From an uncultured Bacilli bacterium (GTDB taxonomy: Bacteria > Bacillota_I > Bacilli_A > RF39 > UBA660): a stretch of DNA of 64,000 bases. Shown here in pieces: positions 1-61,779 of this stretch. Within the stretch, counting starts at the first letter, position 1, and each line of letters opens with the position of its first letter. The stretch is from NCBI GenBank assembly GCA_934098515.1, contig CAKOOK010000002.1:18371-82370 (forward strand), read 5' to 3'. The notes under the pieces are model-generated. The model was not told the origin of the DNA, made no database searches, and saw nothing but the letters and a program-made list of their open reading frames with translations. A program made the translations under genes and the position numbers.

Positions 1-2995
1 CTCTATCATCAGAAATTACTACCCCAAACCATTTATTTTTATTCATTTTAAAATTCTTAATCAAAGTAGTCTCTTCACCTGATAAAATAGAAAACAATAT
101 CCTTGACCCAAACGAAAATGACAAATTTTCATATCTTTTTACAACCTCAATAATAACATTAACAAGCTGTATAAATCTCATTCCACAAACATAAACATTA
201 TGAATATCAATACTATCATTATAAAATAAAATATCCACTTCTTCTCTATCTTGCGTATAATTACTAGGTAACATCATAGTATTACATCCAGTACCATCAG
301 CCTTATAATTAGAACACCCAAGTATCCTAAAATCACTATCCTTATTATCTTTTCTGTTTTTAACAATCAAATACCCATCTACACAATTAGGGCATTTTGA
401 TATAGACATCTTTCCACCCTTCAAATCATTAGTCACAAAACCACAAATCTCCGGATCATTTGAACATATCCATAATCTAGTAGTCTCTGCAATTCTTCTG
501 TTTCCTCTAACTTGTAAAGGATATCCACAACAAGGACACTTAATTGAAGTCCCAACTTGTTTAATTGGTGAAAGCTTATCTCCAGAAATAAGAATATTTT
601 TAAATTTATCTATAATTTCCAAAATAAACTGAGAAGGTTTATAAACCGGCGTTATTACAAACACTCTATTTTTAGTTCTAGTAAGTGCAACATAGAACAG
701 CCTTCTTTCTTCAGCATAATCAACTACTTCAGTATCCTTAATAACAAGCTTCATTACTGGATCATCAACTATTTTAGAAGGAAAACCTAATATAGCATCC
801 TTACCATTAATAATAATTACATTATCATAACCAAGTCCCTTTGAAGAATGTGCTGTCAAATAAGTAAGTTTCAAGTTAGGATACTTAACCGACCTTATAT
901 TATTATAAAAACTAAAGAACTTTTCTTGCTTACCTAATTGATATCCTTCAAATCCATATCTGCCTATCAAAAGCACACTAGAATTTTCACCACTTGTCCT
1001 AACAATTAAATCAAGTGATTTCTCTATTGCCTTACACATTCTTTCAATTGGCGTATCACTTAACTCCTTATCATATCTATCATTATAAGACATAAGAAGC
1101 ACCGGATTCTTAATCGACTTATCACTCTTCAAATCCTTCTTTAACTGCTCATCATTAGACATTACAAATCCACCAGCAATATCAATAAGCTCTTGACTAT
1201 TTCTATAAGTCTTTGTAATTCTTAAAACGTCGGCATATCCCATCATTTCCTCAAACTTAGTAAATAACTCTATCTTAGAACCACTAAACTTAAATATGGA
1301 CTGCCAATCATCACCAACTGCAACAATCTTTGCATCACTACATTTAGAAAGTCTCTCACACAAATCAAATCTTTGTAACGAAATATCTTGATACTCATCA
1401 ATAAAAATATAATCATAAGGTAACTTCTCATTATTATCTATTTTATCCTGAATAATCCCAGCAGCATTATTAATCATATCCTCAAAATCAATACACTTCT
1501 TTGCTTTAAGTTCAGTCATATAGGCCAAATAGCACTGATAACAAATACTAATAAATAACTTAGTTCTCTCATCATTAACAGTAATCTTCCACTCATCAAA
1601 CTTAGAAGCCGAAAAATTATTTGTTTTAAATCTAGATATAAATACACAAACTAACTGAACAAATTTATTAAAATACTTATCCTCTATATTTTTAACAATT
1701 GCACTATAAATCTCTTTATTATTTTTCTGCTCAAAAGATATGCCAGCTCTTTTTAATTCTTCCTTCAAATGTGTAATAGTATCCCTGCCATCCTTATACT
1801 TAGAAAACGTATAAATAAGCTTAGTCCCATGCTTCTTATGTAAAAGAATCTTATCATTAACATGCCTCTTATAAAGATCTAGTTCTTCATCAGAAAACCT
1901 TCCATTTTTGCCATCTTCAGATATTCCAAAATGTTCTATATATATTTCCTTATCATTTTGCCTTATCACAAAATCAGGGCAATATGGCTTAATTGTATCC
2001 CTAAACCCATACGGATAAACCGGCTCATATTCATAATCAATGCCATTTATAAAGAAAAAATTAGCAATCCTGCACTCTTCAGTACTACGTACCTTTTCAC
2101 TTTTTATAGTTCTTTTATTTTTCTCTTGTAACTCTTTATAATTATTAACAGTATCCACTATATCAGAACGCATTGTAGTACAATCATTTTTACTAAGCTC
2201 ATTAATCAGCAAAGAAAGGTCCCCTTCACCACGTGGCACTTCTAAATAACTCGCAAAAAATAACAAAATATTCTTTACAAAAGACTCATCATTCACATTA
2301 TTAATTAAATACTTCTTAATAACACTAAACATAACCTCACTAGAAACAACATTATACTTCTCATTATCATTATTTCTAATTATTGTATTAGCTATAGAAT
2401 GAAATGTTGATATATTAACTGGAAGTCCTAATTTCTTACACCTATCAGCAAGTTCTTTAGTAGCTTTACGAGTAAAAGACACTATAAGAATTCTTGATGG
2501 ATCTACATTTTTCTTATCAATCAAATATTTAACTTTAGCTTCAATTGTCGTAGTTTTTCCAGAACCAGCACCAGCAATAACTAAAGTATAATCTTCATCA
2601 GACAAAACAACTCTTCTTTGTTCTTCATCTAATCGTACATTAGGATCATCTTTAATTAAAACATTATCTAAATATTCTTTATCTAAAGATAGATGCTCAT
2701 TTACAAAATTAGTATTATGAAGTTTAACATTATATTCAGTACTAGCATAATAACCAAGTAATCCACATAACTCAACATAATCAGTTCGATTATTTTTACA
2801 CCACGCAAGTAAAACATTTTCATCCTTCATAAGCATCAACTTATTAAAAACTTCATTAATATCATTATAAATACCTAAATAACACTTTTTTGAAATAAAA
2901 CTATCCTCATTAAGAAGCATCTCTAACTTTCTTTTATACTCACTAAAAATAACATACTCATTAGAATCATTACTAAATCTTTTAAACAAACCCAT
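1..2995 (-). CDS. UvrD/PcrA-like superfamily-1 helicase with tandem C-terminal topoisomerase-type C4 zinc ribbons (5' part; ORF runs off window start)
   Basis: Hand translation of minus strand from ATG at 2995 gives a continuous ORF to position 1. It shows Walker A AGAGSGKTTT, motif II FIDEYQD, LTAHSSKGLGYDNVII, then CPCCGYP..RG and CPNCVDG..GCSNYK..GC zinc-ribbon motifs. No competing ORFs in the six-frame track. Confidence 0.6.
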   Translation of the reverse strand, partial: MGLFKRFSNDSNEYVIFSEYKRKLEMLLNEDSFISKKCYLGIYNDINEVFNKLMLMKDENVLLAWCKNNRTDYVELCGLLGYYASTEYNVKLHNTNFVNEHLSLDKEYLDNVLIKDDPNVRLDEEQRRVVLSDEDYTLVIAGAGSGKTTTIEAKVKYLIDKKNVDPSRILIVSFTRKATKELADRCKKLGLPVNISTFHSIANTIIRNNDNEKYNVVSSEVMFSVIKKYLINNVNDESFVKNILLFFASYLEVPRGEGDLSLLINELSKNDCTTMRSDIVDTVNNYKELQEKNKRTIKSEKVRSTEECRIANFFFINGIDYEYEPVYPYGFRDTIKPYCPDFVIRQNDKEIYIEHFGISEDGKNGRFSDEELDLYKRHVNDKILLHKKHGTKLIYTFSKYKDGRDTITHLKEELKRAGISFEQKNNKEIYSAIVKNIEDKYFNKFVQLVCVFISRFKTNNFSASKFDEWKITVNDERTKLFISICYQCYLAYMTELKAKKCIDFEDMINNAAGIIQDKIDNNEKLPYDYIFIDEYQDISLQRFDLCERLSKCSDAKIVAVGDDWQSIFKFSGSKIELFTKFEEMMGYADVLRITKTYRNSQELIDIAGGFVMSNDEQLKKDLKSDKSIKNPVLLMSYNDRYDKELSDTPIERMCKAIEKSLDLIVRTSGENSSVLLIGRYGFEGYQLGKQEKFFSFYNNIRSVKYPNLKLTYLTAHSSKGLGYDNVIIINGKDAILGFPSKIVDDPVMKLVIKDTEVVDYAEERRLFYVALTRTKNRVFVITPVYKPSQFILEIIDKFKNILISGDKLSPIKQVGTSIKCPCCGYPLQVRGNRRIAETTRLWICSNDPEICGFVTNDLKGGKMSISKCPNCVDGYLIVKNRKDNKDSDFRILGCSNYKADGTGCNTMMLPSNYTQDREEVDILFYNDSIDIHNVYVCGMRFIQLVNVIIEVVKRYENLSFSFGSRILFSILSGEETTLIKNFKMNKNKWFGVVISDDR

Positions 2996-3273
2996 AGTCA
3001 TCAACTCACTAAGATAATTCTACCAAATATTAACAAAAAAATCTGCAAATATTAAAAATTTACAGAACATCATACAATCATAATATATTTAATCAAACAT
3101 AATTTTAACAACTTATTTTTCATTTTCCAGTATAATTAGTAGAAGTAGCAAAAACATCATTTAAATTTTTGCTCTCTTCAGTTAGAAGAGACCAAATTGT
3201 GTTAAACCCTTTAAATACTGGCCTTTTTATATTAGTATAAACCCCCATTTACCGTGTTTTTTTAATATTTTTG

Positions 3274-3293
3274 TACCTAAATTGTACCTAAAA
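3274..3293. repeat. 20-bp direct repeat TACCTAAATTGTACCTAAAA, left copy (internal TACCTAAA x2); about 34 bp similar when extended
   Basis: Exact 20-mer also present at 11907-11926. Flanking bases partly conserved. Confidence 0.7.
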
Positions 3294-3322
3294 AAGACAG
3301 TAGAGTTATCTCTACTGTCCTA
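3290..3322 (-). terminator. Rho-independent terminator of res (minus strand)
   Basis: Minus-strand hairpin GGACAGTAGAG-ataa-CTCTACTGTC followed by TTTTTT, directly after the res stop codon. Confidence 0.55.
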
Positions 3323-3324
3323 AT

Positions 3325-5889
3325 TTACTGAAGCATATTTTCTAATTCACATCTAAATTTTGATTGCCCCTCTAATATTTTACCATTCTTTATGTAATCA
3401 AAAAACTCTGGGTATGCATTAGGGCTCAAAAAATGAAAGATATATTCCTCATTTTCTCCAACCTCATCAAGAATTTCATTTAAATTTTCGAAATGTTCAA
3501 TACCATATTTATATTTAGCTTTATTTTCTTCACTATCATCACCGTCTGCTTTTATTTCGACAACTAAATAATAAACTTTATTATTCTTTACAATTTTAAT
3601 AAAGAAATCAGGGTTAAATAATTGATTTTTAATTTGGTGACTATTCTTTTTCCAAGAGTATTCTATTGAATAAAATCCCATATCTCTTGATTTTATCCAT
3701 GAATCAACACAATTTGCAATTTCCTGTTTTGTCAGGTATTCAACAAAGTCGGATTCAGGTTTTCCAGTTGTAAAAACCATACTCATAGGTGTTTTAAATA
3801 AATAGGTATTTTTATTATTTAGTGATCTAACTGGTCTACTATCATCTTCTATAAAATCATTTAATATTTTTTTATCATCTTCTAATAATTCTTTATCGTA
3901 ATCATCTGTATAATATGCACGTGCCTCTTTTCTTAAACTTGAAATTGAAATAGTTTGTTTTGACATTGAATTTGTATCAATATCAAACACATTCATATTT
4001 TTTGATATTGGAATTACAGTTTTATTCTTCTTTCGTAAAAGTGTACCAAACGTTGTTAAAATATTATTTCTATTTTTTTCTGTTAAATAGTTATCAGTTA
4101 TTCCAACTTTTTTCATAGAATCAAGAATAATTTTTTTTATTATAAATCTGTCTGGAAGATTGTTTTGAGTATATTGTTCTTCTCCAAGCTTTAAAATTTT
4201 TCCTTCCCAATCTCTTGCTCTAAATTCAGTTATGATTTTATCTACTACCTCATCTACAGAATAGCATTCTCGCTTTATAATATAGTTTACTTCACTAATA
4301 TCTCTTGAATTATATAAAGACTGAAATGTAGTACCTTTTTCAATTTCTATACTTTGAGATTCTAATTTTATTCCATTATTTACTATATTTGAATAATCTA
4401 TTACAGTAGAATTTGCTTCTTTAGCTACTTCAATTTCTTCTTTTTCATAATTAATATTTTTTACAGTAAAATTAAATTTAGATCTATAACCTTCTAATAA
4501 AGGATAACCTGCTAATCTTGTTTCAACTTCCAAAACTTCAGAAACTAAATTAGAAATATTTCTACTCCATGAAACATGATTAAAAACTTTTACACTTGGA
4601 ATATTACCATAATATTCACTTGGTATCCTTAAACCTCTTCCTAAAACTTGTGATATTAACAACTTAGAATTAAATGCTCTATCTTCCCACGGAACAATTT
4701 GCATTACATTCTTAACATCCCATCCCTCAGTTAACATTGATACTGAGACAATCCATTCTATTGGACTTTCAATTTTGTCGACACTTTTTAATTTATTTTT
4801 TTCATCTGGTGAAGATTTGCTCGTGATTAATAATACTTTTTTGCTTATTTCCTCATATGATGTATTTAACTCATTTGAAAGAAATTCAATTAAATCTTCC
4901 GATAAATTTGTTGCATTTGAAATATTGGCACATACAAATATGGTAATTGGCTTAATTAAAGCATATCTTTCCTTATTCCTTATATGATTTTGATATATTT
5001 TTTGAAATTTTTCTTTTGTGGTTGTAGTATCATCTTTTATAGCATAATTTATATCTTTTACCGTTCTTTCATCTATTGCTTTTCTTAAAGAATATCTATA
5101 AATAACATCATTAAAGTATTCATTTTCGATATACGCAGTTCCTGTTAACCCTAAAATATACTTAAAGTTATAACTATCATTTAGCAAAAATTCTTTCCAC
5201 TTTTTCAAATCTTTATAAATACTCGCATTATAAATATGGTGTGCCTCGTCATTTATGACTAAAACATTGCCATGTGCATTTTTAAAGCTATCTTCAATGG
5301 ATGAACCAGTATTAGAATAAACTGCGTGAATATTCTCTATACATATATCTCCTGATTTAATTGTATAATTGCCATTAGTTAAATGAGGATTTTTTGTAAT
5401 TGCATCATCAGGAACTAAGCTTTGAATATTATTATCTGATAATAATTGCATAAACTTTTCAGTTAATCCGGCTTCTATTGTTGTAGATGGGCATAAAACT
5501 AAAACTTTATCCACTAACCCCAATCCAAGCATTATTTGTGCAACACCAAATATTATATAAGATTTACCTGTGCCAGTTGCTAAGTCAATAGTCGCAGTTA
5601 ATTTGTTTTTTAATTGTATATTATCATAGTATTCATTTATTGTATTATATTTTTCTTGTAAAACAGGATTTCTTTGATAATTTTCAAGTACTAAATCTTC
5701 AACACTACTATAATTGCCAGATCCTAAATATATAATTGCATTTTTAATTGCATCTATCTGATAATATCTATTACCACATAAACGTTCAATATATTCTTCC
5801 CATTTATCCAATGCTAATTTGTTATGATCATAATTTTTACTAACTTTAAGTGTCAAATCATCTGTTTTAAATATGTAATTATCTTTCAT
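3325..5889 (-). CDS. res: Type III restriction endonuclease Res subunit (SF2 helicase-like)
   Basis: 854 aa. GTGKS Walker A and DEAH box (LVINDEAHH). Overlaps the mod stop by 11 bp (translationally coupled mod-res). Confidence 0.85.
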   Translation of the reverse strand: MKDNYIFKTDDLTLKVSKNYDHNKLALDKWEEYIERLCGNRYYQIDAIKNAIIYLGSGNYSSVEDLVLENYQRNPVLQEKYNTINEYYDNIQLKNKLTATIDLATGTGKSYIIFGVAQIMLGLGLVDKVLVLCPSTTIEAGLTEKFMQLLSDNNIQSLVPDDAITKNPHLTNGNYTIKSGDICIENIHAVYSNTGSSIEDSFKNAHGNVLVINDEAHHIYNASIYKDLKKWKEFLLNDSYNFKYILGLTGTAYIENEYFNDVIYRYSLRKAIDERTVKDINYAIKDDTTTTKEKFQKIYQNHIRNKERYALIKPITIFVCANISNATNLSEDLIEFLSNELNTSYEEISKKVLLITSKSSPDEKNKLKSVDKIESPIEWIVSVSMLTEGWDVKNVMQIVPWEDRAFNSKLLISQVLGRGLRIPSEYYGNIPSVKVFNHVSWSRNISNLVSEVLEVETRLAGYPLLEGYRSKFNFTVKNINYEKEEIEVAKEANSTVIDYSNIVNNGIKLESQSIEIEKGTTFQSLYNSRDISEVNYIIKRECYSVDEVVDKIITEFRARDWEGKILKLGEEQYTQNNLPDRFIIKKIILDSMKKVGITDNYLTEKNRNNILTTFGTLLRKKNKTVIPISKNMNVFDIDTNSMSKQTISISSLRKEARAYYTDDYDKELLEDDKKILNDFIEDDSRPVRSLNNKNTYLFKTPMSMVFTTGKPESDFVEYLTKQEIANCVDSWIKSRDMGFYSIEYSWKKNSHQIKNQLFNPDFFIKIVKNNKVYYLVVEIKADGDDSEENKAKYKYGIEHFENLNEILDEVGENEEYIFHFLSPNAYPEFFDYIKNGKILEGQSKFRCELENMLQ

Positions 5890-7768
5890 TCAAATCACCA
5901 CTACCTTTTTTTATTTCGGTAAACTCATTACCAAAAATATCAGTATATATAATCATAACATCTAAATTACCAATTTTATTAAGATTAATTGTTATATTAT
6001 CATCTATTATTTTCAAATCATTAGCAAAATAATAATCAGTCATTAGAAAGTTTTGTCCATCATAGTTTTTATCAATAAAAATCGAAGCTAACGTTTCAAA
6101 ATTTTTATATTCATTGCCATCATTATCTACTAATGTCTTGCTATAGAATTTACTAAGAATTATTTCAATTGAACTATCATGTAGAATTATTTTGCTTTCA
6201 ACATCAGGCTGTTCAATGAAGTGAAAACCTATTGCCATATCTATATTATTGACACTATTCATGCTTTTTGATTGTTCCATTTTTTGAAATGGATATTTAT
6301 GTAATTCTTTTATTACTTGATATGGAATTTTTAAAAAATAATATCTAATTTCATTAATTTCAAAATAATCATTTAAAAAATCTACATTATTACTTGGAGC
6401 AACAATATAAATTCTGCCATTAATCCTACTTCCAATATTTTTATGTAATTCGTTTAGATAGTCTTCATCAATGCTAGAATCTTTATTTTTATTAAAGTCC
6501 CATATTTTAACATAATGATTCTTTTTAATACCATCAAAAGAAATTCCTGATATTTTCGTTTCCTTTAATTCAAATTCAAAAAGTTCAGAAACAAATTTTT
6601 TATAATCTTTCCAATCAAGTTTTAAAGTTTTTTCTAAATCATATAATCCAAGTTGGTATGTAGAAAATGTCTCGAAATCTTTCCCATATTTTTTATTTGG
6701 ATTAGTTAATGACCTGGATTTTTTAATATTTAATATTCTCTTCTGAATTGTATAAATAGATAATTTACCAATATCGCAAATAATCCACTTTCTTCCTAAT
6801 TTTTCAGCAGCAAAAGCAGTCATTCCTGATCCACCAAAGAAATCCATAACAATATCACCTTTTGATGATGCCGTTTTAATTATTTTTTCAAGCAATTTAA
6901 ACGGTTTTTCTGTTGGATATCCTGTTCTCTCAATTCCATCAATTTTTTGACGAGCAATAACTGGAATGTACCACCAATCTTCTGGAATTTTTCCTTTTTC
7001 CCTATTTTTTATCACATCTTCTTCTGAATAGTCTGCTCCAAATGCCTTTCTTAATCCTTGATTTGGATCTTTATATTCTTCTCTGATTTCATCTTCATTA
7101 AAAATCCATGTATCAGTTTTTGTATACCATAGTATAGTATCATGTTTTCTATTAAATTGTTTCATCTTTGATGATCCTGGACCAGTATATGTCCATATTA
7201 TTTCATTTCTTAAATTATTTTTACCAAATATTTCATCTAAAATCACTTTGATATAATGCGACATCCTGTAATCCAAATGAACAAATATTGAGCCATCATC
7301 TGATAAAATTTCTCTTGCTAAAATCAATCGTCTTCGCAGAAATTCTATAAATTGTGATCCTTTAACTTTGTCGCTATATGCCTTGGCCCCCTTTTTATTT
7401 TTAAATTCATCTTCCGTTGCAAATGGCGGATCGATATAAATGATTTTTACTTTGTCTTTTACTTTATCTTTAATTATAGGATCTTCATTTTCATATATAT
7501 TTTTTAATAATTGCAAATTATCTCCAAATACAAGCATATTCTCCCATTCGTTTTTATTTTTTTTAGCCCCAAACGTTTTATCTTTTTGCAAAGGAATAGA
7601 AAAAACCCCGTCAGCATCTTTTAGTATATCTTCCCTTTTCATTTTTCCAAAATATGACAATTCATATTCTTTATTTACTGTTGGAAAAAGAATTTCTTTA
7701 TATTCATCCGGAATACTATTTCCGGATGTTAACAATCTAATTAATTCATTTTTTGTTTCTTCGCTCAT
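5879..7768 (-). CDS. mod: Type III R-M Mod subunit (N6-adenine DNA methyltransferase)
   Basis: 629 aa. DPPF motif (IYIDPPFAT). Strong SD GGAGGT upstream of ATG. Immediately upstream of res. Confidence 0.85.
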   Translation of the reverse strand: MSEETKNELIRLLTSGNSIPDEYKEILFPTVNKEYELSYFGKMKREDILKDADGVFSIPLQKDKTFGAKKNKNEWENMLVFGDNLQLLKNIYENEDPIIKDKVKDKVKIIYIDPPFATEDEFKNKKGAKAYSDKVKGSQFIEFLRRRLILAREILSDDGSIFVHLDYRMSHYIKVILDEIFGKNNLRNEIIWTYTGPGSSKMKQFNRKHDTILWYTKTDTWIFNEDEIREEYKDPNQGLRKAFGADYSEEDVIKNREKGKIPEDWWYIPVIARQKIDGIERTGYPTEKPFKLLEKIIKTASSKGDIVMDFFGGSGMTAFAAEKLGRKWIICDIGKLSIYTIQKRILNIKKSRSLTNPNKKYGKDFETFSTYQLGLYDLEKTLKLDWKDYKKFVSELFEFELKETKISGISFDGIKKNHYVKIWDFNKNKDSSIDEDYLNELHKNIGSRINGRIYIVAPSNNVDFLNDYFEINEIRYYFLKIPYQVIKELHKYPFQKMEQSKSMNSVNNIDMAIGFHFIEQPDVESKIILHDSSIEIILSKFYSKTLVDNDGNEYKNFETLASIFIDKNYDGQNFLMTDYYFANDLKIIDDNITINLNKIGNLDVMIIYTDIFGNEFTEIKKGSGDLNER

Positions 7769-7905
7769 AACATTACCTCCAAAATACCAATATCCCTTGT
7801 ATAAAAATTATAACATATTTTTCGACAAAATTTGATAATTTGCGACCAATTCATACCAGAAATTACTGAATTGTACGAACAATCTTGACTAATTTTTAAT
7901 TTTAA

Positions 7906-8262
7906 GTGATTAATACAAGGAATTTGAAGAATTGTCTGATTAGAAAATGTACTAACGAGGATATTTCTGATGAAGAATTAGAGAAAGTTATAAATCCTTT
8001 TTATGATAATTATCATAAGTATATTATTACATATGTTATGACTGAAGTAATTATATTTTATATAGCCAGTTCCTTTAGTAGGAATGCTATATGGGAAGCA
8101 ACATTTTATCATCACTATAATTCAGCTAAAGATATATTTAATGTCAGTGATGATGAAAATTATGAAAGTATTAAAGCTGAGGTAATAAAGTTATTAAGAA
8201 TGAAGTATTCTTTAGAAATTATTAGTGAAAATCCATTAGATCTTAAAAAAATTAAGTATTAG
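7906..8262 (+). CDS. hypothetical protein
   Basis: 118-aa ORF with no recognisable motifs. Accessory context. Confidence 0.3.
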   Translation: MINTRNLKNCLIRKCTNEDISDEELEKVINPFYDNYHKYIITYVMTEVIIFYIASSFSRNAIWEATFYHHYNSAKDIFNVSDDENYESIKAEVIKLLRMKYSLEIISENPLDLKKIKY

Positions 8263-8322
8263 TTTTTGTTCTAATACTCTTTTTATTATACAATTTATAA
8301 CTTTCAAGCAGTATATAATAAA

Positions 8323-8966
8323 ATGACAAAGTTTCAAGTTCCTAATGAGTGTAGAAAAGAAATGGCTTATTATACTTATGATAAAATTAAAAAGTTTATT
8401 TCTTATGAAGAAGATATAAGATGAAAATGTGTATTTGAAATATTATATTATTGTGACCTTCGTAAAGGAGAACTAAAAGGTCTTACTTGGAAGGATAATT
8501 ATTTTGATAAAAAAGTATTATCTGTTAATAAACAAATAACTCAACGAAATAATCGTGTTAAGTATGAATTTTCGGATACTAAAACAAGAGATAGTAGAAG
8601 AATAGTTTTCATTATTAAAGTCTTGTTAAATGAACTTAAAATGCTCTATGAACAGGATAAAAAAGAGTATTACGAATTTAATGATGATTTCTTTGTTGTA
8701 TCTGATGCTAAACCTATAGCTGATTCTAATATATATATCTTAGAAGAACTAAACTGGCTACATTAGCTGGTTTAAAGGTTATTAGGATCCATGATTTTAG
8801 ACATACGTGTGCATCACTACTTATTAACAATGGTGCTAATGCTACATTAGTTGCAAAATATTTAGGACATACAAAAATCGAGGAAACACTAAATACATAT
8901 TCACATATGTTTAGTACTGCCCTCGACTCTGTTGTTTCTGTTATAGATAGCTTAGAAGATGACTAA
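8323..8966 (+). pseudogene. Tyrosine recombinase/phage integrase remnant (5'-truncated, in-frame TGA at 8422-8424, frameshift near 8750)
   Basis: Translation gives ..LRKGELKGLTWKD.. then, after a frame switch, ..IRIHDFRHTCASLL..LGH..TYSH.. (HxxR box and catalytic Tyr). No SAM-like N-domain. Broken reading frame. Confidence 0.7.
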
Positions 8967-9907
8967 GCTATTTTTTTATTATATGTTCTACATTCAACTG
9001 GTTGCAAATATTGTTCTTCTGGTTCAACTCCATACATATCTGCTCTAAACTCTTCTAAATTTATCAACATTTTATTTAAAAATTTATTATTTATAATATA
9101 ACTTTTATAATCATCAGATTCCTTAATTTTAACATCAAATAATTCTTTTTGCAGTTCTAAAAGTTTTTCCAATACCACCGCTTCATTTCCTTCTCCATTT
9201 AAAAACAATTGAAAATGGTAACATTCCTCTTTCATTTTATTTAACATTTCAAATAAGGGTTGATATGTATTATTATGTATTTTTGTATAAGATTTTTCCC
9301 CTGAAAAAAACTGCATATCGCCTAACATAAAACTTAATTCAATAGTGCTTTCTTTTGATATACTTATATATTGTTCATATATTTCCTTTGCTTTATTTCT
9401 TAGCTTTTCAATATGTGTATCTACACACTCACTAGCATATATTTGTATAGATGTCTTAGATACTTTTTTTGCTAATTCAGGATGATTGTTAATATATTCT
9501 TTTATAAGAATATCTTTATATTTTTTATCTCCAATAATAATTTTATCTTTACTTATCTTATTGAATTTTTCTTTCCACTTTTTATTATTTAATTCATTTA
9601 TATATGAGATAACGGTATCTTTGCTATATTCATTAAATAAAAATTGCATATTAGAAAATTTTTCAATCAATCTTCTGGTTTCCTGCCAATATTTTTCTAA
9701 CAATTGTCTCTTACTAACATTATATGCTGGAATAGCTAGTAAAAGAGCTACGCATCCACTTCCAAATAAACCTATAAATATGTTTAATAATACTTCAAAT
9801 AATTTATTATCATAGTTTAATACTAAGAGAGTAAAAATTATTATTAAAACTAAAAAAATACTACTTATAATAATCGAAGCTTTTAATGCTCTACAATTTG
9901 CTTTCAT
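8963..9907 (-). CDS. hypothetical membrane protein (2 N-terminal TM helices plus long Lys/Glu-rich, probably coiled-coil cytoplasmic domain)
   Basis: 314-aa ORF. Hydrophobic segments at residues about 10-30 and 40-60. Start overlaps the stop of the upstream Zn-ribbon ORF (ATGA). Confidence 0.5.
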   Translation of the reverse strand: MKANCRALKASIIISSIFLVLIIIFTLLVLNYDNKLFEVLLNIFIGLFGSGCVALLLAIPAYNVSKRQLLEKYWQETRRLIEKFSNMQFLFNEYSKDTVISYINELNNKKWKEKFNKISKDKIIIGDKKYKDILIKEYINNHPELAKKVSKTSIQIYASECVDTHIEKLRNKAKEIYEQYISISKESTIELSFMLGDMQFFSGEKSYTKIHNNTYQPLFEMLNKMKEECYHFQLFLNGEGNEAVVLEKLLELQKELFDVKIKESDDYKSYIINNKFLNKMLINLEEFRADMYGVEPEEQYLQPVECRTYNKKIA

Positions 9908-10125
9908 TATTTTTCACCCTGAATATTACTAATAACATATTTAGATAATTCTTCATAATCACTTATATTTCCAATTCTTTTTAAATATTCATATCCACCA
10001 TCTATTGCAACTGCACCACATGAGCATCTTTTAAAATCATTAATATCTTTTGATTCAAGAATTGAACCACACTTTTTACATTTTATCTTGTTCAATTTTA
10101 TTATTTTTATTTCTTTATTTTCCAC
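9907..10125 (-). CDS. small zinc-ribbon protein (CxxC...CxC)
   Basis: 72 aa. CKKCGS...CSCGAV. Translationally coupled to the 314-aa membrane protein. Confidence 0.45.
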   Translation of the reverse strand: MENKEIKIIKLNKIKCKKCGSILESKDINDFKRCSCGAVAIDGGYEYLKRIGNISDYEELSKYVISNIQGEK

Positions 10126-10240
10126 AAAACATCACCCAAGAAATATTATATCATAACTATGCATTATGTATATTATACCGTTCGCGATATAATATATTTT
10201 ATTCAACAAAAAAAGAACATTAATTGCTCTTTTATGAGGT

Positions 10241-10359
10241 GTTCAGTTCTGTTCGGAGCTGTTCAATGTGTTCGCTCCTGTTCAGAGCTGTTCACTTCTG
10301 TTCAGTGGTGTTCAGTTCTGTTCAGAGCTGTTCACTTCTGTTCAAAGCTGTTCAGCCAA
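10241..10359. repeat. Tandem array of 12 x 10-bp units (GTTCAnnnnn) with 40-bp higher-order periodicity
   Basis: GTTCA at 10241, 10251, 10261, 10270, 10280, ... 10350 (step 10, one 9). 20-mer GTTCAGAGCTGTTCACTTCT exact at 10280 and 10320. Confidence 0.85.
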
Positions 10360-10360
10360 A

Positions 10361-11812
10361 TTATTGTTTTATGATATATTTTCCATAAGCGTCATTCTTT
10401 GTAGTACCAGTCCATATTATTAATTCTTTTTCTATTAATCTGTTTAGCAATGCTACAGCAGTAGTTTTACTTCTACCTATTATATTACTAATTTCTTCTC
10501 TTGTTGCTCCATTGTTATTAATAATAAATTCAATTGCTTTTTGCTCAGGATATGTTAATTGATTCCAAATATTTTTTACTGTTTCATTTGATGAAGCATT
10601 GTTTACATTAGATCTATTTTCTATATCATTATCCAAAACAAGCAATACTGAATTACGATCCGGTTCAGAATAATCTGGATCTTTCAAATTATAGTCATGC
10701 ATCTCTTTATAAATTCTTTTTACACCTTCATTTAATTCTCTTACAATGCCAAACTCAACTAATGCTCTTGCAATTTGTGGATTTCTTGAATATCTTTTTA
10801 CCTTCATTGTATCTAATGTTACAAAACCGCCAAGTTTACCAGGAGAAGATATTTCCATTCTATTATTATATATTTTCACTATTATTTGTTCACCACTATT
10901 AGAATAATCTCTATGAGTTACAGCATTAACGATTCCTTCATACCATGCAAATTCCGGATATTCAGGATGTTTTTCAAAAACACCATTTGAATTTAAATAA
11001 CTAAATTCTCTTAATTGCGAATTAATAAAATCCTTGGCTTCATTTAAAATTCTATATAAATTTTTATCAAAAGTCTTTTCTTTTATTACATTCATTGAAG
11101 TTCCAATTTGAAAATCATTACCTTCAAATTTAATTACTCTTAAACGAGAGCAAGGAAAATATATTGATGGATTTTTACCAAATAAAAGCATACCTGCATT
11201 AGTAAATTTTAATTCACCCTTAATTTCTCTAATATAACCTCTTGCTTTTAATACAGAAATATCATCAGCATCTGTATCAATTTTTTTCTTAAAAATACCA
11301 ACTACTTCTGTATCAATATCATCCATGCTAGAATCCCAAACAATTTGATTTTCAAAATTAGTTTCATTTCTATCATATTCTAAACTTTTTATTTGATCAT
11401 ATGTTAGTTTAATAGATGAGTCTCCTTGTCTACAATAAACCTCATCCTTAACGTTTCTAATTACTCTATTCATAGATGGTTCTACGTGATATAAAATTAT
11501 AATATCATCTTCATCTTTAGAATTATTAATATTTATTATCTCACAATTGCAAATTGGTGTCGGCTTTAAGTATGCTGAAACTATTTTCTGTGCTTCGTTT
11601 AATTTATCTATTCCATATTTGTTAAATCCTTCTATTTTTCCATTATCTGCAACACCAAGTGCTACTATTCCTCCTTGAGCATTAGCTAGTGCCATTACCT
11701 CATTAGCAACCGTTTTCAAATCTGTTTTACCAGATTTCCTTTCAAAATATAGATTTTCAGGTTGTTGCAAATATTCTATTGTGATTTTTTTGTTTATTTT
11801 AGATAAAGACAT
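10361..11812 (-). CDS. COG2865-type ATP-binding protein (AlbA_2/Schlafen-like divergent AAA domain + HATPase-like + C-terminal wHTH)
   Basis: 483 aa. N-term FERKSG...ANAQGGIVALGV typical of AlbA_2. C-term ..ATREEISNIIGRSKTTAVALLNRLIEKELI (HTH). Confidence 0.6.
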   Translation of the reverse strand: MSLSKINKKITIEYLQQPENLYFERKSGKTDLKTVANEVMALANAQGGIVALGVADNGKIEGFNKYGIDKLNEAQKIVSAYLKPTPICNCEIININNSKDEDDIIILYHVEPSMNRVIRNVKDEVYCRQGDSSIKLTYDQIKSLEYDRNETNFENQIVWDSSMDDIDTEVVGIFKKKIDTDADDISVLKARGYIREIKGELKFTNAGMLLFGKNPSIYFPCSRLRVIKFEGNDFQIGTSMNVIKEKTFDKNLYRILNEAKDFINSQLREFSYLNSNGVFEKHPEYPEFAWYEGIVNAVTHRDYSNSGEQIIVKIYNNRMEISSPGKLGGFVTLDTMKVKRYSRNPQIARALVEFGIVRELNEGVKRIYKEMHDYNLKDPDYSEPDRNSVLLVLDNDIENRSNVNNASSNETVKNIWNQLTYPEQKAIEFIINNNGATREEISNIIGRSKTTAVALLNRLIEKELIIWTGTTKNDAYGKYIIKQ

Positions 11813-11906
11813 ATTATCACCTCATTAACATTTTATCATAAAAATGAGTTATTTATTCAATTATTAAAATATTTATACTAAATAAATTTTTAATTCTAAT
11901 TTTTTT

Positions 11907-11926
11907 TACCTAAATTGTACCTAAAA
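11907..11926. repeat. 20-bp direct repeat TACCTAAATTGTACCTAAAA, right copy
   Basis: Exact match to 3274-3293, same orientation. Confidence 0.7.
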
Positions 11927-11971
11927 TTATTTTAGCAATACTGATACCTCGTAAGCTCTTATAAAATGGGA

Positions 11972-12110
11972 CCAAAAAATGAGAGCACAGTTAAATGCTC
12001 TCTTCAGGGGGTTTTGGTTGATACACCTTAACATTGAATTCGTTAAGGTTATCAGCATGATATCTCTACCATGCTAAAATAATCATAAACGAATTTTTAA
12101 TCTTTGTCAA
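11972..12110 (-). ncRNA. candidate small RNA (sigma-A promoter + three stem-loops + intrinsic terminator)
   Basis: Minus strand: TTGACA (12109-12104) - 17 nt - TATGAT (12086-12081). Then hairpins AGCATG..CATGCT, CCTTAAC..GTTAAGG, GAGAGCA..TGCTCTC followed by ATTTTTTGG. No ORF. Confidence 0.35.
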
Positions 12111-12230
12111 TCACAATTTTTAATAATTTACAAAATGTTAATTAAAATAGTAAATTCTCTATTCTTTAAAAAACGAGAAATTAGTTTTATAATCCTTTTC
12201 TTTTCTGTCATGAAAGAAAATTAAATAAAA

Positions 12231-12833
12231 TTATTTAACTTTTTTAAGTTCTTCGTAATATAAAATAAATGTTACGTTCATATAAGGAACAAGCCAAATA
12301 TATAAAATTCCTAAAGTAAAAATTCCAAGTAATAACCAGCCAAAGAAACTTAGAACTAACATAAAATAATCCATCTTATATCCATTCATCATTTCCTTAC
12401 TTTTTCTAATGCAATCCATCGGATTCGTATTTCCATCGATCATTAATAAATTTACCATTGAGTAACTTAATGCTGCAATAATACCAGGAATAATAAGAAG
12501 TAATGCCCATAAAGTTGAAAATAGTGAAGTTAAAAACCATACTCCAAATATTGGTCCAAACATCTTGTAATATTGAAACATTCCTTTAATATCACATTCT
12601 TCACCTCTAACAAATTTCATAACATAAGCAGTAGCTCCAAAACTTAGTGGTAACGTAATAATTGTTGATAGCATTTGTGCGCTCGTACTAACATAAATAT
12701 TATCACTATTTACTCCAAAAAATGCTCCAATAAGCGAATTTATCAAAGACACAATAACAAACGGTATTACTAAATCCCACACATGGCCTTTAATCATAGC
12801 TTTAGCTTTTTCTTTTAATTCTTTTCTATTCAT
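12231..12833 (-). CDS. DUF975-family integral membrane protein
   Basis: 200 aa, multi-TM, N-terminal basic stretch. Family call from overall architecture only. Confidence 0.45.
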   Translation of the reverse strand: MNRKELKEKAKAMIKGHVWDLVIPFVIVSLINSLIGAFFGVNSDNIYVSTSAQMLSTIITLPLSFGATAYVMKFVRGEECDIKGMFQYYKMFGPIFGVWFLTSLFSTLWALLLIIPGIIAALSYSMVNLLMIDGNTNPMDCIRKSKEMMNGYKMDYFMLVLSFFGWLLLGIFTLGILYIWLVPYMNVTFILYYEELKKVK

Positions 12834-12869
12834 ATCATCACCAATATAATTATATACAATTCTAAAATT

Positions 12870-14858
12870 CTAAGCAATAGTTAAGTTCTCAAGAATTTCC
12901 TTCTGCACTTTATAATTATCTAAATTCTTATTTTTCAAAAATTCCTCAGCATCACTTTTACATTGCATTAAAATTTTATAATCTCTATTTAAATTTGCAA
13001 TTTTAAAACTCTGCTCACCACTTTGTCTAATTCCAAAAATGTCTCCTCCACCTCTTAGCTTAAAGTCCTGCTCACTAATATAAAATCCATCATTACTCTC
13101 TTCTAAAACTTTTAACCTTTCAGCATCATAATCACTTATCAAATAACAATAACTTTGCATGTCATTTCTACCAACTCTACCTCTTAACTGATGAAGTGTA
13201 GCAAGTCCAAACCTTTCTGCATTAAAGATAACCATCATCGTCGCATTTTTAACATCAACACCAACTTCGATTACCGTTGTTGAAATCAATATCTTAGTAT
13301 CACCGTTTTTAAAACTATTCATTACTTCATCTTTTTGATTAGGTTTCATTCTTCCGTGCAATAAGCCCGTAGGAACCATTCCATTAAATGCTACATCAAA
13401 CTTGTCTTTTAAGGAAGTTACATTCATCTTTTCATCCTCTTCATCATCAATAAGTGGTGCTACGACATATATTTGATGCCCTGCTTTTATTTCATCTAGC
13501 ATTTTCTCTAAAACATTTTTAAGTTCACTATTTTTAAAAATTTTAGTAATAATCTCTTTTCTGCCACCAGGTTTAGTTCTAATTTCTGTAATATCCATAT
13601 CACCATAAATAGTTAAAGCTAGTGTTCTAGGAATTGGTGTTGCACTCATATATAACACGTCAACATCTTTTCCTTTTTCTTGTAAAGTCTGTCTTTGATT
13701 AACACCAAATCTATGTTGCTCATCAGTAATAACAAGCCCAAGATTATTATAAACAAGTTCATCATTAAGTAAAGAATGCGTACCAATTAAAACTTGAGTC
13801 TCACCATTTTTTAAATTCTGTAAAATCTTATTTCTTTCACCTTTTTTAGTTGAACTTGTAAGTAACTGGATATTTAACTTATCTCCAAAAAGACTTTTCA
13901 TATTATTAAAATGTTGTATTGCTAATATTTCTGTCGGTGCCATAAGCACGCCTTGATACCCTGCTAGCATATTCATATAAAGTGCAATAAAAGAAACTAT
14001 CGTCTTACCACTACCAACATCACCTAAGATTAATCTATTCATTTTCTTCTTAGATAAAAAGTCTCCCTTAATATCACTTACTGCCTGCATTTGCCCATCA
14101 GTTAAGTTAAATGGCAAACTACTAATAAAATTATTAACCTTATCTTCATCAAAACTCTTAATGTTAAATTTGCCATCACTTGCATTCTTCTCTTTTAAAT
14201 AACTTACCTTTAACATAAAAGTAAATAGTTCTTCATATATTAAATGCAAATCTGCTTTTTTCAAACTGTTAATATCTTTAGGTTTATGCACATTAGTAAC
14301 CGCTTCTTTTTTATTTATAAAATTGTACTTTTCTATTAAATAATCTGGTACATTACTTTTAATTTCTACTGTATTATCCAAAATCTCATCAACTAATTTT
14401 TTAAAATTGCTTCTCTTTATCCCTTGATTCAAATGATAAACTGGTTCAATCACCGTTTTAGTTATTGGCGTAAGCTTTATATCACTCGCCATAAATGTAT
14501 TAGATTTTCTATTATATTTACCAATTACTGATATATAACTTTTAATTCTAATATTCGGTTTTAAATAAGCCCGATTAAAGATAGTAACATTTACTAGTTC
14601 ACTTCCAGTATTAAATGCAAAAGATAATTTATTAAGATTTTTTCTTATAAAAAATACTTTAACTGCAGACTCAACATATCCAGTAATTGTGCATGTATCG
14701 CCTTCACTAGACTCTCTTAACTTGACTGGTGTATAAACATTATATCTGTAAGGAAAATAATTAATAACATCATCTTTTGTATATAAATTAAGTGCTTTTA
14801 AAGCAAGTAAACTTTTAGGTCCAATTCCTTTTATATCTTCTAGCATTGTAATCACCAT
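12870..14858 (-). CDS. recG: ATP-dependent DNA helicase RecG
   Basis: 662 aa. Wedge domain plus GDVGSGKT Walker A, DEQHRFG, QLRGRVGR. Confidence 0.85.
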   Translation of the reverse strand: MVITMLEDIKGIGPKSLLALKALNLYTKDDVINYFPYRYNVYTPVKLRESSEGDTCTITGYVESAVKVFFIRKNLNKLSFAFNTGSELVNVTIFNRAYLKPNIRIKSYISVIGKYNRKSNTFMASDIKLTPITKTVIEPVYHLNQGIKRSNFKKLVDEILDNTVEIKSNVPDYLIEKYNFINKKEAVTNVHKPKDINSLKKADLHLIYEELFTFMLKVSYLKEKNASDGKFNIKSFDEDKVNNFISSLPFNLTDGQMQAVSDIKGDFLSKKKMNRLILGDVGSGKTIVSFIALYMNMLAGYQGVLMAPTEILAIQHFNNMKSLFGDKLNIQLLTSSTKKGERNKILQNLKNGETQVLIGTHSLLNDELVYNNLGLVITDEQHRFGVNQRQTLQEKGKDVDVLYMSATPIPRTLALTIYGDMDITEIRTKPGGRKEIITKIFKNSELKNVLEKMLDEIKAGHQIYVVAPLIDDEEDEKMNVTSLKDKFDVAFNGMVPTGLLHGRMKPNQKDEVMNSFKNGDTKILISTTVIEVGVDVKNATMMVIFNAERFGLATLHQLRGRVGRNDMQSYCYLISDYDAERLKVLEESNDGFYISEQDFKLRGGGDIFGIRQSGEQSFKIANLNRDYKILMQCKSDAEEFLKNKNLDNYKVQKEILENLTIA

Positions 14859-55448: not shown

Positions 55449-56990
55449 ATGGAAAAATATTATATTTCAACAGCAATTGCCTACACATCTGCAAAGCCAC
55501 ATTTAGGAAATACTTATGAAATCGTTTTAGCAGATGCTATTGCCCGTTTCAAAAGACTACAAGGCTATGACGTATATTTTCAGACTGGCACAGACGAACA
55601 TGGTGAAAAAATTGAAGGAAAAGCTTTAGAAGCAAACGAGACACCACAAGAATATGTAGACAACATTGCCGCTCAAATAAAAGACATTTGGGATGTAGTA
55701 AACACAAGCTATGACAAATTTGTAAGAACAACAAATAAAGAGCATGAAGAAATTGTTCAAAAAATATTCAAAAAATTTTATGATAATGGAGACATTTACA
55801 AAGGAGAATACAAAGGACTTTACTGCACACCATGTGAATCATTCTGGACATCTTCACAACTAGTTGATGGCAAGTGCCCAGATTGTGGTAGAGAGGTATA
55901 CGAGAAAAACGAAGAAGCTTACTTCTTTAAAATGAGTAAATACTCAAAATGGCTTGAAGATTATATAAATGAGCACCCAGATTTTATTATGCCAGAAGCA
56001 AGAAAAAATGAAATCATTAATAACTTTATTAAGCCAGGACTTCAAGACCTATGTGTATCAAGGACAAGCTTTAAATGGGGAATTCCAGTAACATTTGATG
56101 AGAATCACGTTATCTACGTATGGATCGATGCTTTATCTAATTACATAACATTCCTAGGATATAATCCAGACGGAGAATCAAGTGAGAACTTCAAAAAATA
56201 CTGGCCTGCAAATGTGCATTTAATAGGAAAAGATATTTTAAGATTTCACACAATTTACTGGCCAATTATGCTTCACTGTCTAGGATTAGAAATGCCAAAA
56301 CATATCTTCGGACACCCATGGCTACTATTTGCATCAGACAAAATGAGTAAAAGTAAAGGCAATATCGTATATGCCGACGATTTAGTAGAAAAATATGGAG
56401 TAGATGCTGTAAGATACTATTTACTTCACGAAATACCTTTTGCAAGTGATGGTAACTTCACAATCGAACTACTAGAAAATTCAATAAATAGTGACTTAGC
56501 AAACGTTCTAGGGAACCTCGTTAACCGAACAATTGGCATGATCAACAAATACTTTGACGGAGAAGTTGAAAACACACATATCACGGAAGATATAGATGAC
56601 GACTTAAAAAGTACAATCGCAAACAGCATTACAGCTATCACCAATAAAATGGACGAATTCAAAATAGCGGACGCATTAGATGAACTATTTAATATTTTTA
56701 GAAGATGCAATAAATATATTGACGAAACAACTCCTTGGATTTTAGCAAAAGATCCTGAAAAACAGGCAAGATTAAAGACTGTTCTATACAATCTAATCGA
56801 AAGCATTAGAATAGGTGCTGTACTATTACAAGCATTTTTACCAGAAACAGCAGCATCAATTTTCAAACAAATTAATACAGACAAAACTACAATTGACTCA
56901 ATCAAAACATTTGGAAAGTACGATAGTAAAAAAGTTGGTACACCAGTAGTATTATTTCAAAGGATTGAAAATGATAAAACTAACAGATAG
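55449..56990 (+). CDS. metG: Methionyl-tRNA synthetase (short form)
   Basis: HLGN (HIGH-class), KMSKS, zinc knuckle CTPCESF..CPDCG. Confidence 0.9.
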   Translation: MEKYYISTAIAYTSAKPHLGNTYEIVLADAIARFKRLQGYDVYFQTGTDEHGEKIEGKALEANETPQEYVDNIAAQIKDIWDVVNTSYDKFVRTTNKEHEEIVQKIFKKFYDNGDIYKGEYKGLYCTPCESFWTSSQLVDGKCPDCGREVYEKNEEAYFFKMSKYSKWLEDYINEHPDFIMPEARKNEIINNFIKPGLQDLCVSRTSFKWGIPVTFDENHVIYVWIDALSNYITFLGYNPDGESSENFKKYWPANVHLIGKDILRFHTIYWPIMLHCLGLEMPKHIFGHPWLLFASDKMSKSKGNIVYADDLVEKYGVDAVRYYLLHEIPFASDGNFTIELLENSINSDLANVLGNLVNRTIGMINKYFDGEVENTHITEDIDDDLKSTIANSITAITNKMDEFKIADALDELFNIFRRCNKYIDETTPWILAKDPEKQARLKTVLYNLIESIRIGAVLLQAFLPETAASIFKQINTDKTTIDSIKTFGKYDSKKVGTPVVLFQRIENDKTNR

Positions 56991-61427: not shown

Positions 61428-61779
61428 GGGGTCGTATGGTTTCGACAGAATATATATTTATATATTTGCAAGTGGTATGCTATGCCTAAAATAGCAACAC
61501 AGTTAAAATAACTGACAAAACTAATTATAATACTGCTTTAGCATTTGCCTAGTTGCAATTAAAGCGCTACCTATCAATCTTATTTCTGCGGAGACAATAG
61601 GTGGTTCATATTAGCAGAATATACTTTAGTATTTCTTCAATACTAGAAAGAATCCCTAGAAGATATTCAATATAACTTTGTTAGTTTGCAGATATTGAAA
61701 AATTAATAAACTGACTAAACTTGTAGAAGGTATATAAATAGTATTTTGGACAGTGGTTCAAATCCGCTCGGCTCCACCA
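61428..61779 (+). ncRNA. ssrA: tmRNA (ssrA); candidate tag reading frame ..(A)DKTNYNTALAFA*
   Basis: 5' GGGGTCGTATGGTTTCGACAG (tRNA-like acceptor/D region). 3' GGACAGTGGTTCAAATCCGCTCGGCTCCACCA (T-arm + CCA). Internal ORF ending GCT TTA GCA TTT GCC TAG. Confidence 0.85.

Follow-up and report, generated by a model that had tools for sequence, protein, structure and literature searches.

What does a membrane protein gene do when it lies between a Schlafen gene and the ruins of an integrase, and does it do so alone? The question arises in a 64,000-nucleotide (nt) stretch of DNA from an uncultured Bacilli bacterium (assembly GCA_934098515.1, contig CAKOOK010000002.1, positions 18,371 to 82,370; hereafter the window), where three neighbouring genes encode a Schlafen protein of 483 amino acids (aa), a zinc-ribbon protein of 72 aa and a membrane protein of 314 aa. 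A sequence-only reading of this DNA had combined the three into one candidate anti-phage module, with the 72-aa protein as sensor and the 314-aa protein as effector. Calls of open reading frames (ORFs) recovered the three genes where that reading had placed them, all on the minus strand. Comparison with homologous loci (numbered L001 and upwards) leads us to lean towards another answer, in which the region would be a hotspot island with separate cargo genes, and the 314-aa gene would be a single-gene defence acting at the membrane.

The three-gene module had been called uncharacterised, yet the 72-aa protein belongs to an existing Pfam family, DUF7695 (PF24749; E=7e-25, 87 bits against a cutoff of 25, profile positions 2–57 of 58); the description stands in so far as the Pfam entry carries no functional annotation. 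We compared six islands by pairwise blastn (L019, L091, L089, L025, L001 and the window) and found only two blocks common to them, DUF7695 (81–95% identity) and the integrase (87–91%). The sequence between these blocks is unrelated among the six islands, and identity ends at sharp breakpoints. In the left conserved block, the DUF7695 gene is accompanied by an attachment (att) core, a terminator hairpin and a promoter that contains a palindrome, and the att core lies ~190 bp upstream of the gene in every related island examined. The cargo of the slot includes AbiLi with AbiLii (1.9e-76 and 3.4e-16), PD-Lambda-2_B (5.8e-32) together with a PemK-like protein, PDC-S01 with PDC-S19 (3.3e-121 and 1.3e-102), and capH with a capP fused to Fic (1.7e-11 and 7.5e-28; all E-values from PADLOC), and the gap between DUF7695 and these four unrelated defence modules is 46–145 bp. 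Without exception, the slot cargos checked belong to defence modules, known or candidate. The window has the 314-aa gene in this slot and, inserted upstream of DUF7695, the Schlafen gene with a 3' tandem array. The DUF7695–integrase pair almost certainly brackets a hotspot where unrelated defence cargo is exchanged.

Hotspots of this general kind are already known: in those of the P2/P4 type, conserved genes next to the integrase bracket the defence cargo of integrative elements. The arrangement described here is the same in having two conserved flanks, one of them an integrase, around a slot of mutually replacing anti-phage modules. It differs in the type of element, in its occurrence in gut Firmicute/Bacilli assemblies and in a left flank made of an att core and DUF7695; in addition, restriction-modification (R-M) cargo also lies beyond the integrase, which is often degraded. 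The DUF7695–integrase slot offers a simple anchor for mining unknown defence genes in gut Firmicute metagenomes.

The boundaries of the island in the window are marked by a 26-nt direct repeat that encloses ~8.6 kb (Table 1). The window contains exactly two copies of the 19-nt att core, where 0.01 would be expected, and a second copy is found at the far end of L001, L024 and L027. An arm of ~100 bp beside the right copy shares 84–94% identity with the ends of the L001, L012 and L024 islands. Read along the minus strand, the order is att, Schlafen, array, DUF7695, 314-aa gene, integrase pseudogene (plus strand), 118-aa ORF, Mod, Res and att, so the integrase lies between the three genes and the Type III R-M system; the earlier placement of the genes between the R-M system and a dead integrase was incorrect. 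At the nucleotide level, the window is 95% identical to L017, a Bacilli metagenome-assembled genome (MAG), over 9716–12166, 97% identical to L027 over 8622–12033 and 98.5% identical to L028 over 10285–12010, whereas the RecG region flanking the island is only 66–68% identical to the same comparison genomes. The island has therefore been transferred horizontally. Its family members come from gut Firmicute metagenome assemblies and MAGs. With its att repeats, integrase pseudogene, Type III R-M system and highly similar transferred copies, the region agrees with the initial view of the genes as cargo of a mobile defence island, and it is best read as one side of an integrative defence island of ~8.6 kb (~3268–11926), which integrase decay would by now have immobilised.

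Table 1. Positions of island features in the window
Feature	Position	Strand	Basis or remark
att-like core, right copy	3268–3293	-	direct repeat with 11901–11926
Type III R-M system, cargo beyond the integrase	3325–7768	-	Mod 5879–7768, Res 3325–5889
118-aa ORF, upstream of the integrase	7906–8262	+	sits where related islands have an S24-like gene
Tyrosine-integrase pseudogene, right flank of the cargo slot	8296–8957	+	tblastn against the intact L016 integrase
Hairpin between the convergent 314-aa gene and integrase pseudogene	8945–8973	+	terminator-like on the plus strand
314-aa protein, cargo gene; predicted N-terminal two-helix transmembrane hairpin and cytoplasmic helical domain	8963–9907	-	unannotated family; ATG start
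72-aa zinc-ribbon protein, conserved left-flank "leader" gene of the slot	9907–10125	-	Pfam DUF7695
Promoter-like site of the DUF7695/314-aa operon	10145–10172	-	TATACA-16-TATAAT with TG; overlaps the palindrome conserved in other islands
Weak hairpin and T-run after the array, terminator-like end of the Schlafen transcription unit	10207–10230	-	read from sequence
Tandem array, ~12 units of 10 bp (CTGAACAGNN, coding strand)	10236–10355	-	TRF: period 10, 12.1 copies
483-aa prokaryotic Schlafen (COG2865)	10361–11812	-	SLFN_AlbA_2 + HATPase_c_4 + weak C-terminal winged helix-turn-helix matches
att-like core, left copy (TTTTAGGTACAATTTAGGTA... on the minus strand)	11901–11926	-	direct repeat with 3268–3293

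If the slot exchanges its cargo, does the 314-aa gene depend on DUF7695? We grouped the loci that encode 314-aa homologues into 13 distinct contexts and scored DUF7695 by hidden Markov model within the fetched flanks. It is present only in contexts i and ii; the other 11 contexts (homologues with 22–67% identity to the window protein) lack it. In context i (window, L017, L027 and L028; 90–96% identity, 60% over a 125-aa stump in L017) the order is Schlafen-B, array, DUF7695 and 314, and in context ii (L001–L004, L012–L014 and L018; 82–89%) it is DUF7695, Schlafen-A, array, a DUF7695 remnant and 314. Elsewhere, the neighbours are Schlafen-C and Mrr on one side and a 261-aa protein and an Mrr/ZorD-like protein on the other (iii, L007, 51%), an MkoA/C-like helicase, PDC-S36, NUDIX and MazG (iv, L009, 49%), or an att site and a 258-aa gene before the homologue and an intact integrase after it (v, L016, 52%). 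The gene lies 3' of secA in L005 and L015 (vi and vii, 66–67%) and 3' of recG in L029 and L105 (viii and ix, 43%), the latter also with nSTAND3, an HsdM fragment and an integrase fragment. It follows a PemK-like protein in L030 (x, 40%), is preceded by a YaaC-like and followed by an ORF6N gene in L033 (xi, 35%), and accompanies a deaminase in a Mob_Pre/serine-recombinase element in L099–L103 (xii, 39%). Finally, the homologue of L104 (xiii, 22% identity, E=5.7e-19 to the A1 profile) is embedded in a BREX operon, between PglX (6.8e-93) and PglZ (7.6e-238) and followed by BrxL (E=0). The ORF upstream of this homologue was considered as a tandem paralogue and rejected (hhalign probability 1%); it is the C-terminus of PglX. 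An AbiO/Nhi-like helicase and Type I R-M are also found among the neighbours of 314-aa homologues. All occurrences are in variable or mobile regions, the neighbours in the contexts lacking DUF7695 share no homology, and no conserved partner gene was found for the family, which on this distribution behaves as an autonomous, solo gene.

This distribution bears directly on a dedicated abortive-infection (Abi) or toxin–antitoxin pair, in which the zinc ribbon would be the sensor or antitoxin and the Schlafen possibly a third component. Such a pair would explain the 1-nt overlap of the two genes in the window, L027 and L028; the 4-nt ATGA overlap reported earlier at 9907 is in fact TAATG in the window, with TAA as the stop, and ATGA occurs only in L017. 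It would also explain the 3' remnant of DUF7695 that immediately precedes the 314-aa gene in three loci (L001, L012 and L018), where a second, intact DUF7695 lies 2 kb upstream; the adjacency is therefore ancestral in that lineage. Three different Schlafen paralogues just upstream of 314-family genes (window, L012 and L007) would fit a trio. However, all loci with an adjacent pair carry the same element, 90–98% identical, and are therefore not independent observations; no co-occurrence across independent lineages was found. DUF7695, absent from 11 of the 13 contexts, heads the four unrelated modules of the slot at gaps of 46–145 bp, stays ~70% identical despite the change of cargo and is encoded by phages as well. 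The adjacency can also be dispensed with, because in L012 the 312-aa gene has stayed intact although the DUF7695 before it is destroyed. We regard the dedicated pair as the least probable of the alternatives weighed here, and DUF7695 and the 314-aa protein very probably are not one. The trio fares no better: in the closest relatives (context ii) a paralogue with 22% identity stands in place of the Schlafen gene, or the gene is missing, and we therefore treat it as independent cargo.

The 314-aa protein itself has two hydrophobic segments (~residues 9–31 and 38–60), in agreement with the two N-terminal transmembrane (TM) helices first noted, and beyond residue 70 no 19-residue window rises above a Kyte–Doolittle value of 0.61. 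Basic residues lie on either side of the hairpin, whose outer loop has 6 residues, and a topology with both termini inside (N-in/C-in) is therefore predicted. The second TM segment is rich in small residues (IGLFGSG). In the AlphaFold2 (AF2) model (34 homologues, mean pLDDT 89.9), which is all-helical apart from a small three-stranded sheet, this segment runs on as a long helix, after which come a helical bundle and the sheet; no obvious coiled coil, as proposed initially, is seen. A broad alignment of the family contains one invariant residue, Y62, with S50 and F200 nearly so, and the consensus motifs IxxGxFGS (in the second TM segment), EYxxxKRxxLE, HFxLYxxGxGN and LExFRxKIY. The ratio of non-synonymous to synonymous substitution (dN/dS) against distant homologues is 0.16–0.34, indicating purifying selection, and 0.16–0.41 for the 72-aa gene; both are therefore real, functional genes. 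In the comparison with L027, the 314-aa protein has diverged more rapidly than the neighbouring proteins (96% identity against 99.8% and 98.6%), with a dN/dS of ~0.87 based on few changes.

No known family accounts for this protein. Searches of Pfam, NCBIfam, PHROGs and PADLOC returned only noise, for the window protein and for sets of 10 and 92 diverse relatives alike; the best match in PADLOC-DB v2 is DpdC, at E=0.058, and the 92 relatives gave four scattered PADLOC matches, each with E>=1e-4. Foldseek, run with the AF2 model on PDB and BFVD, found no match at E<=1e-3. Matches to bestrophin and to designed helical bundles had TM-scores of 0.1–0.2 and were dismissed as meaningless, as were, as spurious, the GCN4 coiled coils that were all the 314 profile returned from PDB sequences. 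The absence of a recognisable family or enzymatic motif thus held up in both library and fold searches, and neither homology to a housekeeping family nor a routine non-mobile context was found. A word-indexed search placed 44 clusters in the family, and a profile search 531 at E<=1e-3, of which 269 reach E<=1e-10; nearly all members are ~300 aa long. Clusters were defined at 50% identity, and 531 is a lower bound. A second homologue search with the broad alignment (A2) added little. The close family has a scattered distribution, with 4 loci in 185,579 species genomes, and the family was not found in IMG/VR, GenBank phages or PLSDB plasmids.

Among longer members (P0214, 543 aa; P0293, 535 aa; P0287, 539 aa), one has a C-terminal extension of ~270 residues without a Pfam match and one has extra TM segments; the third reads through into the C-terminus of a Type I HsdR and is a probable gene-call artefact reflecting R-M adjacency. 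In L025/L026, a 226-aa ORF (7702–8388, minus strand) just past the AbiL cargo matches the 314-family profile weakly (8.7e-5) and may be a remote or partial relative.

TM-hairpin effectors are themselves a known kind, including SLATT proteins, the TM effectors of CBASS, Pycsar and retrons, and RexB-like proteins. They resemble the 314-aa protein in combining a hairpin with a cytoplasmic domain, in their location in defence islands and in the lack of an enzymatic motif. They differ in that the 314-aa protein has no sequence match in Pfam or PADLOC, no fold match in PDB or BFVD, and no associated signal-producing enzyme or conserved partner. SLATT_1-5 and DUF4231 of Pfam were not found in the window protein or in 10 further members, no SLATT family is among the 25 listed of the 43 Pfam families matched by the 92 members, and a single marginal match to RTasSLATT (6.8e-4) was obtained for these members in PADLOC.

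The 314 family is a credible single-gene defence candidate. In the mechanism we favour, the 314-aa protein would act alone as a phage-resistance determinant: its cytoplasmic helical domain of ~250 residues would detect a phage cue, upon which the TM hairpin would oligomerise and collapse membrane integrity, resulting in abortive infection. The leading alternative mechanism, which we hold less likely, is a block on DNA entry exerted at the membrane's inner face. We consider the chances of defence by membrane action to be about evenly balanced. If the protein does protect, the family would be a widespread single-gene system missed by current defence-annotation libraries.

Several observations weigh against this reading. 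The assignment to defence follows from position, that is, guilt by association. Four contexts (L005, L015, L033 and L099) include no recognised defence neighbours. The gene is decayed in L001–L004, where a premature stop near codon 33 (gene at 7818–8798 in L001) leaves a 266-aa product (P0013), and L017 retains an N-terminal stump of 125 aa (10001–10378) followed by a different cargo. With Y62 as the only invariant residue, no pore or enzyme motif is evident. Moreover, a lineage-specific coupling between DUF7695 and the 314-aa protein may still exist, given that the genes overlap and a 3' remnant persists upstream.

Alternatively, the 314-aa protein could be a superinfection-exclusion (Sie-like) or element-maintenance protein that would keep phage DNA out or serve the island itself and would not kill the cell; prophages often carry Sie-type membrane proteins beside the integrase, and the gene adjoins an integrase in the window and in L016. 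Its membrane anchor, the lack of an enzymatic motif and the homologue in a mobilisable element (L099) agree with such a role. Yet only ~6 residues face the outside, so surface contact with an incoming phage is unlikely, the family was not found in the phage, viral-contig and plasmid collections, and a chromosomal BREX operon contains one member; we judge this explanation unlikely. Less probable again is a function outside defence, for example as a stress or envelope membrane scaffold that hitch-hikes in variable regions. The four contexts without recognised defence genes, the missing functional motif and the decay of the gene in some islands speak for it, but such a scaffold is difficult to reconcile with the sporadic distribution of the close family, its constant association with variable or mobile regions, its occupation of the same slot as AbiL, PD-Lambda-2 and CapHP-Fic, its place within BREX (L104) and the purifying selection on the gene.

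If DUF7695 is not the partner of the 314-aa protein, what is its role in the slot? The four cysteines of the 72-aa protein (C16-x2-C19...C34-x-C36) follow the CxxC...CxC pattern noted at first, are invariant across 31 homologues and are predicted metal ligands, and its GTG start agrees with the N-termini of the homologues. DUF7695 comprises at least 239 clusters with ~70% identity; its homologues are 63–76 aa long, and the AF2 model is an all-beta zinc ribbon with no helix-turn-helix (HTH) or WYL domain. With this model, Foldseek returned only generic zinc ribbons at E>1. The protein also matches phrog_7042 of PHROGs, and a literature search on DUF7695 found no papers. In all islands, a conserved palindrome (TACCGCAAACGGTA) abuts the TATAAT-like element in the promoter region of DUF7695, ~60–75 bp upstream of the gene in L019, L025, L089 and L091, and it is degenerate in the window (ATCGCGAACGGTA at ~10176–10189). 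The canonical islands have two further elements between the att core and the promoter, another inverted repeat (ATACGGA-N14-TCCGTAT) and a long terminator hairpin.

Viruses encode DUF7695 as well. It was found in 55 IMG/VR contigs (L034–L088), among them contigs of 100–216 kb and a giant-virus MAG, and DUF7695-like sequences occur in isolate phages (Geobacillus virus E3, 56490–56618; Erythrobacter phage XM05, 141654–141764). The viral proteins are either alone (57–78 aa) or fused into larger proteins (99–223 aa), amid small genes of unknown function, and the att core of the islands was found at none of the viral DUF7695 loci. Its presence in phage contigs of large size and in a giant-virus MAG, together with the missing att core, led us to reject a role as excisionase.

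Many defence systems are preceded by regulator genes, such as CapH/CapP and the WYL repressors of the BrxR/CapW type. By analogy, DUF7695 is likewise a small conserved gene 5' of interchangeable operons with a palindrome in the promoter; unlike these regulators, it is an all-beta zinc ribbon that lacks HTH and WYL domains and is common in phage contigs. In L091–L098 it precedes a CapH/CapP-type pair, and therefore does not replace those regulators. The small phage zinc-finger regulators Mu Com and P2 Ogr offer another comparison, being similar in size (~60–72 aa), in their four cysteines and in their position just upstream of a potentially harmful gene (overlapping it in the window); the 72-aa protein differs in having neither Zn_ribbon_Com nor Ogr_Delta among its Pfam matches listed at E<=0.1. 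DUF7695 is most likely a cargo-independent zinc ribbon and a putative nucleic-acid-binding regulator of the operon that follows, and we favour this generic role over that of a sensor specific to the 314-aa protein. More speculatively, DUF7695 may be the hotspot's cargo-agnostic gatekeeper, which phages would copy so as to silence the hotspot.

The remaining gene of the proposed trio encodes a prokaryotic Schlafen, and its earlier description as a COG2865 protein with AlbA_2, HATPase-like and HTH parts, upstream on the same strand, is borne out for the first two parts, the HTH matches being weak. SLFN_AlbA_2 (PF04326; E=7.6e-17, with 62.4 bits where the cutoff is 25.3) and the histidine-kinase-like ATPase HATPase_c_4 (2.7e-19, 69.4 bits against 26) are followed by weak winged-HTH matches at residues 419–469 (MarR_2, 1.4e-3; TrmB, 5e-3; HTH_24, 0.02; all below gathering scores). 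The protein matches phrog_12156 (1.7e-92 in PHROGs), and a pattern scan of IMG/VR did not find it there. The motif E19-NLYF-E24-R-K26, also present in five homologues, is an intact Ex4ExK, in line with the catalytic motif Ex4(E/D)xK of prokaryotic Schlafens (PMC13056530). Its architecture agrees with that of the HisKinase-HTH class, which makes up 19.2% of 5,930 prokaryotic Schlafens; in that work, phage defence was demonstrated only for DUF262- and Ig-like fusions, not for HisKinase-HTH proteins (Nat Microbiol 2026, PMC13056530). According to the same paper, 69.6% of prokaryotic Schlafen genes lie near known defence genes. The window protein shares the nuclease and ATPase domains and the motif of that class, with a putative C-terminal HTH, and lies in a defence island. 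We infer that it is an independent Schlafen-type defence gene with predicted RNase activity.

The array begins 5 nt past the Schlafen stop codon and contains 8 of the 10 exact TGAACAG sites of the window. Among islands whose Schlafen is 99.2–99.8% identical to that of the window, its copy number is 6.9, 8.7 or 11.7. Other Schlafen genes have arrays in the same place, each gene with its own unit: Schlafen-A has 5–11 copies of AAACAACTGC, the S. respiraculi gene (42% identity) 15.6 perfect copies of TTTATTGTAG, the S. dysgalactiae gene (43%) 20 perfect copies of TAGGATACAG, the F. vincentii gene (44%) 3.6 copies of an 11-bp unit and the Legionella gene (49% to Schlafen-A) 7.1 perfect copies of a 12-bp unit. 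These arrays, with units of 10–12 bp (L012, 2010–2122; L107, 5420–5575; L108, 5432–5631; L106, 5518–5556; L114, 3700–3784), follow the stop codon or the homologous part of COG2865 HisKinase-HTH genes. No array accompanies the more distant Schlafen homologues of Gordonia and Mycobacterium phages, Vibrio, Bacteroides and L007, and ~1 Mb of other fetched DNA contained no further array with a period of 10 and 5 or more copies. The weak hairpin after the array was not flagged by a terminator scan, having too few G-C pairs; in its L012 counterpart, a perfect stem of 7 bp precedes a T-run.

The term 'tandem repeat' is absent from the main text of PMC13056530, where the Schlafen 3' arrays appear to be undescribed; the 314 family and the DUF7695–integrase hotspot likewise appear new. 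The arrays may be binding sites, repeat RNA or slippage tracts. A combined reading, in which the 314 family is a new stand-alone anti-phage membrane effector and the arrays are a functional cis element, seems doubtful to us. It would unite a cytoplasmic sensor domain and a two-TM killing or exclusion module in one 314-aa polypeptide, and the array would be a phased DNA landing pad for the Schlafen's own HTH or, alternatively, a transcribed repeat RNA that silences the RNase in the manner of a type III antitoxin. If the arrays are functional, they would give a first clue to the control of the most common bacterial Schlafen architectures, a point left open by PMC13056530.

The repeat array also coincides with a breakpoint in the island. 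Compared with L028, the island is a mosaic, with a Schlafen part (10285–12010) of 98.5% identity and a DUF7695/314/integrase part (8292–10236) of 91%, and the change falls in the array. At 8360–9609, between the repeat array and the DUF7695 promoter, L028 carries an insertion sequence judged by eye to be of the IS3 type (ORFs of 119 and 273 aa, minus strand), with a near-identical duplication of ~14 nt ('ATAAAAGAGCAATT') on either side.

On the other side of the slot, the integrase remnant aligns by tblastn to residues 148–367 of the L016 integrase (78–83% aa identity); the alignment is split over two frames and contains stops, and the first 147 residues are absent. The L016 protein is intact (Phage_integrase, E=1.1e-27). 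The 118-aa ORF has no family match in Pfam or PADLOC. Beyond it, the Type III R-M gene pair consists of an adjacent Mod methyltransferase (Pfam N6_N4_Mtase, 2.2e-50; PADLOC MTase_III, 5.3e-55) and Res helicase-nuclease (Pfam ResIII, 2.1e-19; PADLOC REase_III, only 0.011).

An Rfam scan of 7000–13500 gave nothing relevant. Just beyond the left att core, the transferred block contains a candidate small RNA of ~100 nt (11972–12076, minus strand), with a candidate promoter at 12082–12110 (TTGACA-17-TATGAT, 11/12 matches), three hairpins including a terminator, a minimum-free-energy z-score of -6.6 and no Rfam match; besides the window, the complete element was found only in L017. At the opposite end, a large gene (1–2994, minus strand) that runs off the start of the window abuts the right end of the island. 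Its translation, inspected by eye, contains the Walker A motif GSGKTT, as is typical of superfamily-1 (UvrD-like) helicases, and near the end cysteine-rich segments resembling zinc ribbons; the gene may be defence-related. Unrelated to the island, a transfer-messenger RNA gene lies at 61428–61779 (plus strand), with the tag peptide DKTNYNTALAFA.

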